This document shows, in pieces, positions 39,001 to 45,000 of a DNA stretch of 64,000 nucleotides (position 1 is the first letter of the stretch; each line of letters begins with the position of its first letter). The stretch is from an uncultured Verrucomicrobiae bacterium. Lineage in GTDB: Bacteria; Verrucomicrobiota; Verrucomicrobiia; Chthoniobacterales; UBA10450. The position numbers were made by a program. The stretch is taken from positions 192,001 through 256,000 of the forward strand of contig CAVSDR010000004.1 in assembly GCA_963726745.1 (NCBI GenBank). The letters run 5' to 3'.

Positions 39001-42000
39001 TTCCAGCACCTTGCCGCTGGAACCTTTGAAGTTGCCGGCAATTACTTCCACATTGTCGCCCTTGCGGACGTGCAGCTTGATCCGGTTCATAGAACCTCCG
39101 GCGCCAGGGAGACGATCTTCATGAAATTGCGCTCGCGCAGTTCACGGGCGACTGGCCCGAAGATACGGGTGCCACGCGGGTTCAGGTCTTTGTCGATGAT
39201 CACGATCGCGTTGTTGTCGAAACGCAGGACCGAGCCGTCGTCGCGCTTGATTGGCTGCCGAGTGCGCACGAGGACCGCGCGCACGACTTCGCCCTTCTTC
39301 ACCGTGCCGCCGGCGGAGGCTTCCTTCACGTTCGCGGTGATCACGTCGCCGATGCCGGCAGTCTGGCTGGTGCCCTGACCAATGACGCCGATCATCGTGG
39401 CCATGCGTGCGCCGCTGTTATCGGCCACGTCGAGTCTGGATCTAATCTGAACCATATAAAATTTCCCTGTTGTTAGGCTACTTCGCGACCACTTCGACCA
39501 GCCGCCAGCGCTTGAGCTTGCTCAAAGGGCGGGTCTCCATGATCCGGACGGTGTCGCCGGTCTTCGCCTTGTTCTCTTCGTCGTGAGCGTAGAATTTCTT
39601 CATCTGCTTCACGATTTTGCCGAACTTCGCGTGCGGCACGCGGGTGACGGTGCGAACCACGATGGTCTTGTTCATCCCGCTGGAAATGACTTCGCCGGTG
39701 CGGGTCTTCCGCGTTGGGCGTTTGGTTTCCTCGGCCGTGCTCGGGCTATTCTCAGTCTGTGTCTCTTCGGCCATAAATTATTTGCTCGCGGGTTGCTGCT
39801 GCTGCTGCGCGCGCTGCGAAAGCACGGTCTCGACCTGTGCTACCTGGCGACGGAGGAGACGAAGGCGGCTCGGTTGTTCGAGCTGCCCGCTCTTCTGCTG
39901 GAGGCGGAGATGCAGGCTCTCTTGGCGAAGATCACGCTTCTTCGTGGTCAGCTCTTCGGAGCTCATCTCGTTGATTTCTTTAAATTTCATACTCGTTAGG
40001 CGGCAGCCACGTGGTGCCGGGTGAGGAACTTGGTCCGGACTGGCAGCTTATTGGCCGCCAGGCGGAGCGACTCGCGGGCGACCGATTCAGTCACGCCGTC
40101 GAGCTCAAAAAGAATGTTGCCGGGGCGCACGGTCGCAACCCATTTCTCCGGCTGGCCTTTACCTTTACCCATGCGGGTTTCTGGCGGGCGGGCGGTGACG
40201 GATTTGTCCGGGAAGATACGAATCCAAAGCTTGCCTTTGCGTTTCATGTTGCGGGTCAGGGCAACGCGGGCGGCCTCGATCTGGGTGTTGGTGATCCAGG
40301 CGCGTTCCAGCGTCTGGAGCCCGAATTCGCCGAAATCAATCTTGAGCGTGCGGGAAGCGGTCCCCTTGCGGCTGCCCCGCTGGGTCTTGCGATACTTCAC
40401 GCGTTTGGGCATCAATGGCATGTCAGTGTCTCCTTAAAAAAATCGTTCGTTAGGCTTCGACCGGCGCCGGCGGCGGGGTCGATGGCTGAGCCACCGGTTC
40501 CACCGGCGTCTCGTCCTTCTTACAGATCCAGCATTTCACGCCGATCTTTCCGTAAACTGTATTTGCCTCGGCAAAGCCGTAATCGATCGGCGTACGCAGG
40601 GTGTGAAGCGGCACTTTGCCTTCGCGATACCATTCCGAGCGGGAAATTTCCGCGCCGTTGAGGCGGCCGGAGCTGCGCAGGCGGATGCCCTGGGCACCGA
40701 AGTCCATTGCGATCTGCACGGCCTTTTTCATCGCGCGGCGATAAGCGATGCGGCGCTCGATCTGCAGGGCCACGTTCTCGGCCACGAGCTGCGCGTCGAG
40801 TTCCGGCGTTTTGATTTCCTGGATGTCGATCTTGATCTGTTTCCCCTGCGCCATCTTCGAGATTTCCTCGGTCATCTTCTCGATCTCGGCGCCTTTTCGT
40901 CCAATGACGATACCTGGGCGGGCGGTGTGGATGGTCACGCGAATGCTGTTCCACGCACGCTCGATGATGATCTTCGAGACGGCGGCAAACTGCAGCTTCT
41001 TCTTCACGTAATCGCGGATGCGAATGTCGCTATGGAGGAAGGCCGGCATATCCTGCGGCGAGGCATACCAGCGTGAGCGCCAGTCGCGATTGACCGCGAG
41101 GCGGAAGCCAATTGGATTAACTTTCTGTCCCATGACTAGCTTTCTGCTTTCTCTGCGCCAGCTTCGGCCTGGGCCGGGGCGGCTACTTTGGTTTCTTTCG
41201 CGGGCTTGGCGGCCTTCGCGCGGGTGCTCTTTTTCGCGCCCGACTTCTTCGCCTTCGACTTGTCGCGGCGCTTGATCTCGATCTCGTCGGTTAAAATAAT
41301 CCGGATGTGCGCGCTACGCTTGAGGATGCGGCTGCCACTTCCGCGGGCGCGCGTCATCATCCGCTTCATCGTGGGGCCTTCACCCACAGTGGCCTCTTTC
41401 ACCACCAGGCCGTCGACCTTCATGTTGGCGTTGTTCTCCGCGTTGGCCACGGCGCTCTTGAGCGTCTTGTTCACCAAACCGGCGGCTTTTTTGGGGCTAA
41501 ACGCGACCACGTCGAGCGCTGCCGAAACCGGCAGACCCTGGATGGCACGCGTGACCTCGCGCACCTTGAAGGGCGAAATCTTCGCGTAACGATATATCGA
41601 TCGGACTTCCATTTACTTTAAACTCACGTTTTGGCGGGCATCAGCTTGCAGCTTATCCCCTACCTTTATTTTTTCCTTCGTCGTTCCCAATTCCTGAATC
41701 ACCGCCCCGCAAATCTTCTGGCGCACATCGACCACCCGGAGGGTGGCGATCAGGCGGCCGTCGCGCAGCACGCGCAATGGCATCCCAACCTTGACTCCCT
41801 GCCGTTCGCCGAGGTTACCCACGACCAGCGACCACTCGTCTTTCACACTCACCACGCTGCCATCCATCAAGCTGGGCTGCGGCTCCGGCGCTTTCGCCTG
41901 CTGGCTAATCTCGTTCGTCCGCCGCAATTGCGCTTCCACTTCCGCGCGGGCCTTCGCATCGCCGCCCGTTGAAGTCTGGAGCAGCGGCAAAAGCGCTTCC

Positions 42001-45000
42001 GTTAACCGCAACATCTGGTCGCGATACTGATCGCGCTCCTTGCGCATCAACTGCAAGTCACTGACCGCGCTTAGGAGCCGTTGCTCCAGCTTCGCACGAT
42101 CCTGACTTGCCGCATCGAGGCCTAATGCTTCCACGCGCAGCTGCAGGTCCGAATACTTTCGGCGGAACAATTCCGCTTCGGCATTCGACTCGGCCAGGCT
42201 CTCCGTGAGGGCCCGGACCGACTGCTGCTGCACCTCGAGCTGCTCGCGCAACTCGCTCAAATTGGATCCTGACAAAGAACTATTTCCCTGCGCCATCAGC
42301 TCACTGGCTGACAAGACGCTGCCTAACAACGCGATCATCGGTTTGCGCCCGACACCGGCCTTTACAGGCCTGCGCCAGTCGAAAAGCGAAAATCGAAAAT
42401 TCAAAAAAACTACTTCGTCACCTTCGCCGTATGCGACCCGTGCTTCTTAAAGATGCGCGTCGGTGAGAACTCCCCGAGTTTGTGCCCGACCATGTTTTCG
42501 GTCACGAAAACGGAGTTAAAAATCTTGCCATTATGCACCAGGAAGGTGTGCCCCACGAAATCAGGCGTCACCATCGAACGGCGCGACCAGGTCTTGATCG
42601 GCTTCTTCACCCCGGCGGTGTTCATCTTGTCGATCTTCTCGAGAAGATGCGGTTCGACGAACGGTCCTTTTTTTAACGATCGGCTCATAGCAAATTACTT
42701 CTTCTTCCGGCTCACGCGGCGATCCTGCATGATGAAGCGATCGCTTGGCTTGTGCTTCGAACGGGTCTTGAAGCCCTTCGCGAGCTGACCCCATGGGCTG
42801 GTAAGATGTTGGCGTCCGCCACCACCCTTGGATTTGCCCTGGCCGCCACCGTTCGGGTGATCGACCGGGTTCATGACCATGCCGCGGACGGTCGGGCGGA
42901 TGCCCTTCCAGCGCGAACGGCCGGCCTTGCCGCTGACCACATTCATGTGATCGACGTTTCCGACCTGGCCGATGGTGGCAAAGCAGGTGTCGTGAATCCG
43001 GCGAATCTCGCCAGACGGCAACTTCACCAAGGCATAACCGGCTTCCCGGTTGCTCAAGGTCGCCTGCTGACCGGCGCTCCGCGCCACCTGGCCACCGCGA
43101 CCCGGGGCGATCTCGATATTGTGAATGCTCGCGCCGAGCGGGATTGCGCTCAACGGAAGCGCATTGCCCACTTCCGGCGGGGCGGTTGGGCCAGACATCA
43201 CTTTCGCACCGGCGGTCAAACCGTCCGGAGCCAGGATATAGCTCATCTCGCCGTCTGCATATTTGATCAGGGCGATACGAGCAGAGCGGTTCGGATCGTA
43301 CTCGATCCCCACCACTTCGGCGCCGACGCCATGCTTCCGCCGGCGGAAGTCGACCTTGCGATATTTCTGTTTGTGCCCGCCGCCGATGTGACGCGAGGTC
43401 AAACGGCCATTATTGTTGCGGCCACCGCTGCGCTTCTTGACTTCCAGCAGCGACTTGTGCGGCTTCGACTTCGTGATTTCCTCGAAGGTCGAGAGCGTCG
43501 CAAAGCGAAGCGTCGGGGTGAGTGGGCGAAATGTGCGTATTGCCATAAGTCGTTAGACGAGGTCGATCTTCTCGCCCTCTTTCAGGGTCACGATGGCTTT
43601 TTTCCAGTGCGGCTTCCGGCCGAAATCGGCGCGGCGCTCGCGCTTTTTCTTGCCGGCGTAGTTCGCCGTGTTCACGGAAACAACCTTCTTGTTGAAGAGC
43701 TGCTCGATCGCCTGCTTGATCTGGATTTTGTTCGCCCGCGGGGCGACCCGGAAGACGTACTTGTTCAGCTTCTCGCTCAAGAGCGAGGCCTTCTCGGTCA
43801 ACGAGGCGGTTTCAATGATGTCGAAAGGTTCGTTCATTCCCGGGTGGTCCTTCCCGCGAGCTGCTCGAGGGCTTTGCTGGTGACAAGGATCTTGTCGAAA
43901 GCCAGCAGTTGTTCGGTGTTCACGTCGGTCGCGGTCGCGAGCAACACCGGCCGCACATTACGCGCAGCGCGATAGGTGTTCTCGTCAAACGCGTCCGAAA
44001 TAAGCAGCACTTTGGTCGCGTCGGTCTGCTGTTTCAGCAGGGTCAGAAAAGTCTTGGTCTTGATCTCCGGCACGGAGAAAGAATCGATCGTGAGCACGTC
44101 GCCCGCGTTGATCCGCTCAGTCAGCGCTTTCGAGAAAGCGAGTCGGCGGGTCGTCTTGGAAACCTTCTTCGTGTAGTCCCGCGGCTTCGGTCCGAAGACC
44201 ACGCCGCCGCCGCGCCAAATAGGCGACGACTTGTAGCCCGCACGGGCGCGGCCGGTCCCCTTCTGGCGCCAGGGCTTGGCACCGGAAAGATTGACTTCCG
44301 CCTTCGTCTTCGTGTTGGCCGAGCCGGAACGGCGCGCCGCGCGCATGGCCACGACCACATCGTGCACCGCTTGCGTCCCGCGTCCGCCTTCCACCAGGAC
44401 CATCTTCGCGTCCTTCGCGGCTTCGATTGTTAAAACTTTCGCGCTCATTTCGCTTCCCCTGCTTTCACGGGCTTCTTGATCGCCGGGCGCACAACCACCA
44501 GGCTGCCATTCGCTCCGGGGATCGCCCCGCTGATCAAAATTACCTTGTCGCTCTCGCGCACCTGCAGGACCTGCAGGTTCTGCACGGTCACGCGCTCGTC
44601 GCCCATATGACCCGGCATGCCCATGTTCTTGAACACGCGGCCGGGGGTGGAGCGATTACCGATGGCGCCGTTGCGGCGGTGAGTCTTTGAACCGTGCGCC
44701 GCGCCCTGGCCGGCGAAGTTGTGCTTCTTCATCACGCCCTGGAAGCCTTTGCCCTTCGAGCGGCCAATCACGTCCACCCAGTCGCCTTCGGCGAACTGCG
44801 TCACGCTCAAGTTGATCTCGCTCTCCGGCGCGTCTTCCTGCAGGCGGAATTCCCGCACGAAACGCTTCGGCTCGACCCCAGCTTTCTTGAACTCGCCGAG
44901 ATTCGCGTTGTTGATCCGCGACTCCTTCTGCGCGCCGTAGCCGACCTTGATCGCCGAGTAGCCGTCATTCTCCGCGGTGACACGTCGCACGATGACGTTG

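Follow-up and report, generated by a model that had tools for sequence, protein, structure and literature searches.

Few bacterial gene orders are as well conserved as that of the S10 operon, and a comparison of 113 genomes describes the S10, spc and alpha clusters as generally conserved (PMC2837039). Many lineages of Verrucomicrobiota hold, in the middle of this operon, an unnamed gene whose product appears to be exported. What does such a gene encode, and why is it kept there? The question was examined in a stretch of 64,000 nucleotides from an uncultured Chthoniobacterales bacterium (hereafter, the window), and the gene under study will be called gene X.

A protein-coding gene between rpsS and rplV

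In the window, the operon reads S10-L3-L4-L23-L2-S19-X-L22-S3-L16-L29-S17 without interruption (Table 1). Gene X lies on the same strand as its neighbours, 5 nt from the S19 stop and 0 nt from the L22 start; its TAA (41613..41615) abuts the ATG of L22 in the sequence TAAATG. The survey's finding had placed a gene belonging to no family between rpsS and rplV, and this description holds: the frame is open, and its product matches no Pfam or NCBIfam family above the family's cut-off. Matches to ribosomal proteins were found neither among Pfam and NCBIfam families at E≤1 nor when a profile was searched against PDB sequences at E≤10. Pairwise dN/dS values of 0.09-0.23, obtained from 28 pairs of close relatives, reveal purifying selection and hence a selected protein-coding gene rather than a chance frame. 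In an alignment of 29 orthologues, 28 columns are invariant.

The start codon, assigned by the survey to ATG 42338 and flagged there as uncertain, did deserve the caution. Translation probably begins at TTG 42404, in which case the 241-aa version is 22 codons short. A GTG or TTG occupies the codon aligned with TTG 42404 in 17 of the 20 closest relatives, with a peptide resembling VNFRFSIFDFR preserved, and the first start codon lies between -1 and 29 nt past the S19 stop in 27/29 loci of the order. Because a ribosome-binding site of its own would not fit into a spacer of 5 nt, initiation of gene X is probably coupled to termination of S19, to judge from the sequence. On the minus strand from S3 to L2, a search that constitutes a weak test returned no promoter-like or terminator-like consensus site.

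Table 1. Gene X, its neighbours in the S10 operon and the segments of its product (window positions).
Feature	Position	Strand	Details and evidence
rplB (L2), precedes S19	42695..43546	minus	ORF list, tblastn synteny
rpsS (S19), upstream neighbour	42410..42688	minus	Pfam Ribosomal_S19, E 1.7e-36; stop TAG 42410..42412
Spacer between S19 stop and gene X	42405..42409	minus	TTTTT, 5 nt; sequence
Gene X (no named family)	41613..42404	minus	263 codons + stop TAA; ORF list, conservation, dN/dS
Presumed Sec signal peptide	42288..42404	minus	Residues 1-39; hydrophobicity scan, sequence
Three long helices	41895..42266	minus	Residues 47-170 (47-93, 98-144, 150-170); AF2 model
Six-stranded beta-barrel	41643..41861	minus	Residues 182-254; AF2 pLDDT 94-96
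rplV (L22)	41136..41612	minus	158 aa, C-terminal tail K/A-rich; Pfam Ribosomal_L22, E 5.7e-35
rpsC (S3), next operon gene	40450..41133	minus	ORF list, tblastn synteny

Distribution across the phylum

Within the order Chthoniobacterales, 104 of 121 genomes match gene X at E≤1e-3, 93 of them at E≤1e-22, and the order L2-S19-X-L22 is found at all of the 30 best loci. The remaining 11 matches are weak. In the four genomes inspected (three of family f7 and one of genus g24), S19 and L22 are adjacent, so the weak matches of these genomes do not lie at the junction and probably represent a paralogue. The genome of the window itself carries a paralogue of the same architecture at an unrelated locus (G000:C3:522231-522773; E 7.4e-6, 32% identity), and weak second matches similar to it are seen in many genomes of the order.

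Conservation extends well beyond the order. S19-X-L22 was detected at 23/23 loci drawn from some 19 further families in the class, and a profile search found matches in 173 of the 251 genomes of the class at E≤1e-5, so that the 8 of 58 genomes counted outside the order by the survey proved too low. In other classes, a homologue is present at each of seven S19-L22 loci with a long spacer (E 5e-11 to 2e-29 with A1, the profile of the junction form). Thus, the survey was right that the insertion is kept across Chthoniobacterales and that its position inside the operon is fixed, as the synteny of both sets of loci confirms, but the arrangement is not a trait of that order, since three classes of the phylum show it. 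In some lineages, Opitutales among them, a short form of 111-124 aa is found that consists of the signal segment and the barrel without the helices.

The constant neighbour of gene X is L22, not S19. In Lentisphaeria-type genomes, S19 and L22 are separated, yet in 16/23 loci the gene immediately preceding L22 is a homologue of X; when this split-lineage form (A2) was aligned with A1 using hhalign, the probability was 98.1% (E 1.2e-13, 151 columns). The spacer between X and L22 varies from 0 to about 100 nt. Over 70 loci, the median spacer is 9 nt for both L2-S19 and L22-S3, and 806 nt for S19-L22.

Several lineages, including some within the order, no longer have gene X at the junction, and it is dispensable there. 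Of 145 sampled genomes, only 46, belonging to 19 families, have S19 and L22 side by side, 15-150 nt apart; these include the f7 and g24 genomes mentioned above and two genomes of 0.9 Mb. Our searches support the view that gene X founds an undescribed family, detected here in Verrucomicrobiota alone.

Architecture of the product and its structural relatives

The survey had proposed a signal peptide, a coiled coil and a barrel of the FlgT-C/MreC type; a signal-like N-terminus, long helices and such a barrel are supported by AF2, Foldseek, VIA-align and scans of 61 family members. Residues 1-39 begin with an n-region rich in K/R (NFRFSLFDWRRPVKAGVGRKP), followed by the hydrophobic core MIALLGSVLSA and the stretch SELMAQ, and the signal peptide is presumed to be cut near A38/Q39. 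In a crude Kyte-Doolittle scan, an N-terminal hydrophobic segment was detected in 60/61 members; scores of at least 2.0 were reached by 54/61 members and by none of four ribosomal controls (S19, L22, L2 and S3), of which L22 and S3 attain 1.79. K/R residues precede the segment in 58-60 of the 61 members, and a conserved GNSSL/NRSL motif comes after small residues such as AQ/AA.

The helices are modelled with pLDDT 90-94 at residues 51-90 and 111-130, and residues 47-170 are presumed to form a coiled-coil stalk. This part contains an invariant LEQRLL..V.DL motif as well as N74/E78. The barrel is the part common to every form of the family.

Comparison of the barrel with known structures gave FlgT (PDB 8z5n, 3w1e) as the top Foldseek match (E 2e-4). 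The C-domain of FlgT, a periplasmic protein of the Vibrio flagellar H-ring, has the same six-stranded fold (8z5n; VIA-align Z 10.7, rmsd 2.0 Å, 73 aligned residues, 23% identity). MreC (PDB 2j5u, 2qf4, 6zlv, 7eft; Z 7.9-8.4), which Foldseek returns too, shares the plan of a membrane or signal segment followed by a coiled coil and a barrel. The N-terminal "crown" barrels of F1, V1 and T3SS ATPases and of HerA, which pack side by side as rings, also have this small fold (Z 8-10.3; 9.3-10.3 for the ATPases, families that Foldseek returns as well); these proteins are, however, cytoplasmic, and gene X lacks an ATPase domain; the resemblance is one of fold alone. The fold is in fact widespread, and matches at Z 8-10 cover functions as unrelated as those of ATPases, HerA, MreC and Gar1.

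With such likenesses, gene X might be taken for the MreC of this organism, or for a FlgT, in an unusual place. Membership in either family is refuted, and we regard this identity as extremely unlikely. A different gene of this genome, beside MreB (163564-164532) at G000:C4:162715-164532, encodes a canonical MreC (PF04085, 144.5 bits), whereas the product of gene X does not match PF04085 even at E≤1; four of the 61 members show weak matches to this family. MreC has two barrels, and gene X has one, outside any mreB/mreD context. As for FlgT, the window protein scores 16.7 bits against Pfam FlgT_C (PF16538; E 0.01), below the cut-off of 27; 12 of the 61 members match weakly at E≤0.05 (best 5.9e-4), and none exceeds the cut-off. 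The N and M domains of FlgT and its flagellar neighbourhood are missing, the neighbours being ribosomal, and FlgT in turn lacks the long helical stalk. The barrel of gene X might still work like those of MreC or FlgT.

Expression, explanations and precedents

Data from Akkermansia muciniphila, rather than from the organism of the window, bear on how the gene is used. Amuc_0299 is the likely orthologue of gene X, by its position and the species name: it is flanked by L22 (Amuc_0298) and S19 (Amuc_0300) in published supplementary tables (PMC11480725). Its transcript is co-regulated with the operon: the RNA baseMean is 2944, versus 1032 and 991 for the neighbours, and the log2 fold changes in four contrasts (2.07, -0.36, 1.93 and 2.33) fall inside the range of the ribosomal genes of the operon (PMC11480725). 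The protein is detected, with iBAQ values of 1.0-3.5e7 against 1.4e8-2.5e9 for S3, L22, S19 and L2 (PMC11480725), which puts it at about 1-4% of L22, although whole-cell proteomics may give too low a value for a protein that is exported. The survey had held that synthesis is hard-wired to transcription of ribosomal proteins; the mRNA agrees with that claim, while the amount of protein is not simply proportional. The term "Amuc_0299" was absent from the full text of the literature searched.

The explanation that we favour, with a probability of about 0.6, is that gene X encodes a non-ribosomal protein exported by Sec, an envelope scaffold or assembly factor for which demand scales with growth. 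A polycistronic mRNA would carry gene X at the level of its ribosomal neighbours, and translation would start at a weak TTG 5 nt past the S19 stop; we propose that, because the start is weak, the protein amounts to a small fraction of ribosomal-protein output. The signal peptide would direct the product across the inner membrane, where it would be cleaved. The helical part, about 120 residues, would then be an elongated, probably oligomeric stalk in the periplasm, and the barrel a conserved module for binding a partner or for assembly. If the need for such a factor follows growth, its permanence in an operon controlled by growth rate would be explained.

Another account takes gene X for a functional envelope protein that came to lie in the operon by historical accident, with no adaptive meaning to its position, as an ancient insertion hard to remove without harming L22 expression. 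A paralogue of the same architecture at work in an unrelated locus, the second matches in many genomes of the order, and a protein level in Akkermansia that leaves ribosomal stoichiometry unused all fit this account. We consider it unlikely, nonetheless: clean removal has occurred many times, as the short spacers in 19 families attest, so removal is possible and retention elsewhere looks selected; furthermore, X remained with L22 after the operon broke. Attachment to L22 even where S19 is absent would also suit a gene that acts mainly in cis, in the manner of SecM, translation and export of its nascent chain tuning translation of L22 and downstream genes to the state of Sec and the envelope. 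The signal-like N-terminus and the abutting stop and start codons of the window point in the same direction. This second account is nevertheless very improbable: conservation is strongest in a folded barrel under purifying selection rather than in a short arrest motif at the C-terminus, protein accumulates measurably in Akkermansia, and the paralogue lies away from ribosomal genes; in addition, the distance to L22 is variable, and no conserved RNA family was found.

It is also conceivable, if rather improbable, that the S19/L22 junction is a "slot" specific to the phylum Verrucomicrobiota, and gene X an extra S10 gene that defines the lineage and links the L22-S3-L16 half of the operon functionally to the state of the envelope or of secretion. 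The product would then be either a secretion-sensing cis-regulator of L22 translation or an envelope factor required in fixed proportion to that half, and in Lentisphaeria-type genomes the operon would have broken exactly upstream of X, leaving X at the head of an L22 operon. Little credence can be given to a last alternative, in which the anchor stays uncleaved and the stalk and barrel are cytoplasmic, acting on ribosomes or translation at the membrane. Ribosomal neighbours would favour such a factor, and the fold does occur in barrels that bind RNA or serve translation (Gar1, Z 6.7-7.1; an IF2 chain in the Foldseek list). On the other hand, K/R residues ahead of the hydrophobic segment place the C-terminus outside according to the positive-inside rule, the core is followed by small residues, a feature of signal peptides that are cleaved, and FlgT-C and MreC, which match the structure best, are proteins of the periplasm.

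Gene X could teach something new about the envelope of Verrucomicrobiota, among them soil lineages close to Candidatus Udaeobacter, and about how foreign genes are taken into ribosomal operons and retained there. Since Amuc_0299 belongs to a heavily studied gut bacterium, it is a cheap and direct target for testing, and genetic tools for A. muciniphila were reportedly described in 2023.

Non-ribosomal genes co-transcribed with ribosomal genes have precedents: secY, adk, map and infA in the spc operon, rpoA in alpha, and secE-nusG before L11. Among them, secY is tied to the envelope and secretion, as gene X would be. Genes of this kind are, however, almost universal and lie at or near the ends of the spc and alpha operons, while gene X sits in the middle of S10 and is seen in Verrucomicrobiota alone. 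A second parallel is the secretion monitor SecM, which lies before secA: as in X-L22, a gene whose product carries a signal peptide stands directly upstream of one that is possibly coupled to it in translation. Gene X differs in that no arrest motif was identified, and in possessing a free-standing paralogue and a large, conserved, folded domain.

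Position, start codon and conservation of the gene between S19 and L22

On the minus strand of the window, the genes S10-L3-L4-L23-L2-S19-X-L22-S3-L16-L29-S17-L14-L24-L5 follow one another gapless, X being the unnamed gene found between rpsS (S19) and rplV (L22). The identity of both neighbors is certain (Pfam E 1.7e-36 for S19, 5.7e-35 for L22), and the ATG of L22 is made of the three bases immediately after the X stop codon. The survey's finding had placed the start of X at ATG 42338, yielding a 241-aa product, and had flagged this choice as uncertain. The start is probably farther upstream: in 17 of the 20 closest relatives a GTG (16) or a TTG (1) immediately follows the stop codon of S19, and the VNFRFSIFDFR-like peptide read from there is conserved in them. 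We therefore adopted the TTG listed in the table below. In 27/29 orthologous loci of the order Chthoniobacterales, the earliest start codon is located -1 to 29 nt past the S19 stop; among orthologues of the order, it is TTG or GTG in the family of the window and mostly ATG elsewhere.

Three tandem heptamers, (A/C)TTTTCG, lie within the first codons of X; the conserved NFRFS... peptide that they encode was seen only in the window's family. An Rfam scan of window positions 36000-50000 found nothing relevant. Other observations in the window concern neighboring genes. Several ribosomal proteins have long C-terminal tails of low complexity, K/A-rich in L22 and L24 and P-rich in S3. The fusA gene (EF-G) is split over two overlapping frames, and the expected EF-G peptide moves to the +1 and then to the +2 frame within about 60 nt, as if the frame had shifted twice by a single base. 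An assembly error in this 7-contig genome is the probable cause; the alternative is a broken or recoded fusA.

Coordinates of the features discussed (window positions unless a contig, a locus or residues of X are named)
Feature	Position	Strand	Basis or size
S19 stop, TAG	42410..42412	minus	sequence
Five T's	between S19 stop and X TTG	minus	sequence
X frame, 263 codons	TTG 42404 to TAA 41613..41615	minus	sequence
Tandem heptamers	42375..42404	minus	
L22	41136..41612	minus	158 aa
S3	40450..41133	minus	
L24	38746..39090	minus	114 aa
fusA, two frames	46806..47630 and 45445..46887	minus	
EF-G frame changes	near 46880-46945		
X, predicted mature N-terminal motif	residues 40-46		alignment columns
X, three long helices	residues 47-93, 98-144, 150-170		AlphaFold2
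X, six-stranded barrel	residues 182-254		AlphaFold2, pLDDT 94-96
X paralogue, same genome	G000:C3:522231-522773 (locus L002, 1360-2136)		258 aa
S19-L22 spacer, genome G005	L206 (G005:C35) 946..1500		555 nt

X is a real gene under selection. Pairwise dN/dS values are 0.09-0.23 (28 pairs from eight close relatives), and 28 columns are invariant among 29 orthologues, including LEQRLL..V.DL, N74 and E78 in the helices and G199, G207, P209, RVVDVR, G233 and GD in the barrel. The protein falls below every Pfam and NCBIfam cut-off, FlgT_C being the top match (E 0.01, 16.7 bits versus a cut-off of 27). A search of PDB sequences with the 29-orthologue profile gave nothing significant, just coiled-coil noise and a lipoyl-like stretch of an RND adaptor (E 0.04-0.1). 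Against 1.84 billion cluster representatives, the X profile matched 1827 proteins at E<=1e-3, of which 244 reached E<=1e-30. The nearest protein-atlas clusters are all unnamed and from Verrucomicrobiota; the nearest named one, from Planctomycetota, has FlgT_C in 40% of its members (score 0.80) and is a lead only. Longer fused forms of the barrel were not found in the search, which is weak evidence.

Distribution of X and fate of the junction across Verrucomicrobiota

With the single X protein as query, 104 of 121 Chthoniobacterales genomes match at E<=1e-3, 93 of them at E<=1e-22; the order L2-S19-X-L22 is found in 30/30 best loci. Hence, the earlier claim that X is kept between S19 and L22 across this order holds. 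The remaining 11 genomes show weak matches only. In the four weak-match genomes that were inspected (three of family f7, one of genus g24), S19 and L22 are only 20-30 nt apart, so that the match does not lie at the junction. Genome G005, whose congeners have X, carries a 555-nt spacer with no detectable remnant of X or similarity to it; this spacer may be a decayed or replaced copy. Two genomes of the order, 0.9 Mb in size, have S19-L22 spacers of 151 and 316 nt without X, and no remnants were detectable in them.

The survey had described the insertion chiefly for Chthoniobacterales, and here the main correction is needed, as the distribution is wider. A profile search found matches at E<=1e-5 in 173/251 genomes of the class Verrucomicrobiia, and the order L2-S19-X-L22-S3 occurs in 23/23 loci from around 19 other families of the class. 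Akkermansia is among them, its protein (genome G167) being recorded as 'hypothetical protein [Akkermansia muciniphila]'.

At the phylum level, S19 and L22 were located independently of X in 146 genomes, and both were found in 145. The distance between them was under 200 nt in 46 genomes (19 families), 200-499 nt in 18 (5 families) and 500-1200 nt in 30 (10 families), while in 51 (7 families) they were separated by 48 kb to 1.3 Mb or lay on two contigs; these counts are descriptive and not tests, as neither kin nor family counts are independent. Fourteen junction loci were fetched: seven with long spacers, those of the two 0.9-Mb genomes, and five whose spacers measure 372-441 nt. All seven long-spacer loci, which belong to other classes (one named Kiritimatiellia), contain an ORF that matches the order's X profile (E 5e-11 to 2e-29). 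The ORF called in four of the five 372-441-nt spacers is a short form, 111-124 aa long, with a signal segment and a barrel but no helices; the profile recognizes three of them (E 2.5e-9 to 8e-6), and one short-form family is named Opitutales. The fifth locus yielded no more than a weak match to a stop-to-stop frame (E 1.5e-4). These loci show the barrel to be the constant core of the family, with a stalk that ranges from 0 to around 250 residues.

In the 51 genomes with distant genes (one of the families named Lentisphaeria), the break in the S10 operon falls exactly at the S19-L22 junction: one cluster ends with L2-S19 and the other, up to 1.3 Mb off, begins with (X-)L22-S3. L2 remains directly upstream of S19, and S3 directly downstream of L22. 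Examples are the locus pairs L096/L097 (G339), L100/L101 (G400) and L098/L099 (G382). The order's X profile found nothing in five genomes of these lineages despite the presence of a homologue, which marks the limit of its sensitivity. When the DNA was read, an X-like ORF was detected upstream of L22 in 16/23 split loci (6/8 in family f70, 6/6 in f77, 3/3 in f87, 1/1 in f97, 0/3 in f83, 0/1 in f91 and 0/1 in f89). Such ORFs end 9-101 nt before L22, and their products run from a hydrophobic N-terminal segment through long helices to a C-terminus that resembles the barrel. Profile-profile comparison of the 16 ORFs, one family of which is named Lentisphaeria, with the 29 orthologues of the order gave 98.1% probability (E 1.2e-13) over 151 columns, a span that corresponds to the last helices and the barrel. 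No X-like ORF was found downstream of S19 in three S19-side loci. Therefore, X travels with L22.

Clustered at 90% identity, one X from a split lineage of Lentisphaeria (289 aa) falls together with 110-aa proteins named L22 and one 404-aa member. This mixture suggests a gene call that fuses X and L22 on one contig, and may be an artefact.

Predicted export and architecture of the product

Read from the TTG, the N-terminus of X has what appears to be a classical signal layout: a K/R-rich n-region, the core MIALLGSVLSA, SELMAQ and the conserved GNSSLS motif. The short motif at the predicted mature N-terminus, directly past the signal segment, reads GNSSL(S/T)ES within the order, while many of the class's families have N/R-S-L; in the window's family the mature protein would begin near QGNSS. 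By a crude test (a Kyte-Doolittle mean of >=1.6 for 11 residues, counted in the first 75), 60/61 X members have a hydrophobic stretch, and K or R precedes it in 58; the start of the single exception was probably wrongly chosen. A value of 2.0 is reached by 54/61 members versus 0/4 ribosomal controls, of which L22 and S3 score 1.79 at internal positions.

The AlphaFold2 model (29-row alignment) has a mean pLDDT of 78.7 and a pTM of 0.38, with low confidence in the N-terminal 45 residues. In an all-against-representatives structural search, the best match was the FlgT C-domain in the Vibrio LPHT ring (8z5n; Z 10.7, rmsd 2.0, 73 residues aligned, 23% identity), followed by N-terminal barrels of V/F-type and related ATPases (Z 9.3-10.3), the T3SS ATPase and HerA (Z 8.0-8.6) and MreC (Z 7.9-8.4). 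Foldseek returned the same families (FlgT-C, ATPase barrels, MreC). Among 61 diverse members, the commonest weak Pfam match was FlgT_C (12/61, best E 5.9e-4, all below cut-off) and the second was MreC (4/61). Structural ranks and weak Pfam matches together thus identify a remote barrel of the FlgT-C/MreC type. The fold is common, and function cannot be read from it. That X is MreC itself was rejected because the genome carries a separate MreC (144.5 bits) beside MreB. Homodimer prediction for residues 45-263 scored 0.41, compared with a mark of 0.42.

A paralogue of X lies away from the ribosomal genes in the same genome (E 7.4e-6, 32% identity). Its architecture combines helices and a barrel with a membrane or signal segment, and a small lipoprotein-like ORF comes after it. 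Many genomes of the order likewise have a weak second match of this type. Over 12 loci from other families, the paralogue neighborhood showed no conservation that might serve as a functional clue; in 4/12 the next gene was judged by eye, not by family scan, to be GT9 heptosyltransferase-like.

Expression in Akkermansia and overall interpretation

Expression figures were taken from the supplementary tables of PMC11480725, searched by term. There, a 'hypothetical protein', Amuc_0299 (UniProt B2UMT5), lies between L22 (Amuc_0298) and S19 (Amuc_0300), and on position and species it is likely the orthologue of X. Its RNA baseMean in one contrast is 2944, versus 1032 for L22 and 991 for S19; as the gene is roughly two- to three-fold longer, RNA per base is about the same. 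Its log2 fold changes in four contrasts (2.07, -0.36, 1.93 and 2.33) each fall within the range of L29, L16, S3, L22, S19, L2, L23 and L4. A transcript boundary between S19 and X was considered, as in two contrasts the fold change is low for S19 only; it was rejected because the upstream genes L2, L23 and L4 behave like X and L22. The protein was detected in 14/14 samples with iBAQ values of 1.0-3.5e7, compared with 1.4e8-2.5e9 for S3, L22, S19 and L2; it amounts to around 1.4-3.4% of L22, a share that may be too low if an exported protein is under-sampled. In these tables, therefore, the Amuc_0299 mRNA is ribosomal in level and regulation, while the protein is a small fraction. The low share agrees with the weak start codon of X in the window and its presumed coupled initiation, under-sampling being the alternative.

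A soil metatranscriptome run (X1, share 0.06) covered only conserved pieces of ribosomal proteins, with 90-95% likeness to the window, and had zero depth in most bins over X; it has no bearing on X expression either way. The term 'Amuc_0299' was not found in the full texts searched, and no insertion into the Verrucomicrobia S10 operon or at the rpsS-rplV junction came up in the literature search. The supplement of PMC4960237 held no match for S19 or L22.

The most economical account is that X is a predicted Sec-exported, stalk-and-barrel protein of the envelope. Three other explanations fit the data less well: that X is a frozen passenger in the operon, that it is a monitor similar to SecM, or that it is a ribosome factor facing the cytoplasm. 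The S10 cluster is generally conserved, according to a passage in PMC2837039. On this account, insertion of X upstream of L22 would predate the divergence of the Verrucomicrobiota classes; X has since stayed under purifying selection, with shortening in some lineages and loss in others, and it accompanied L22 where the operon split.
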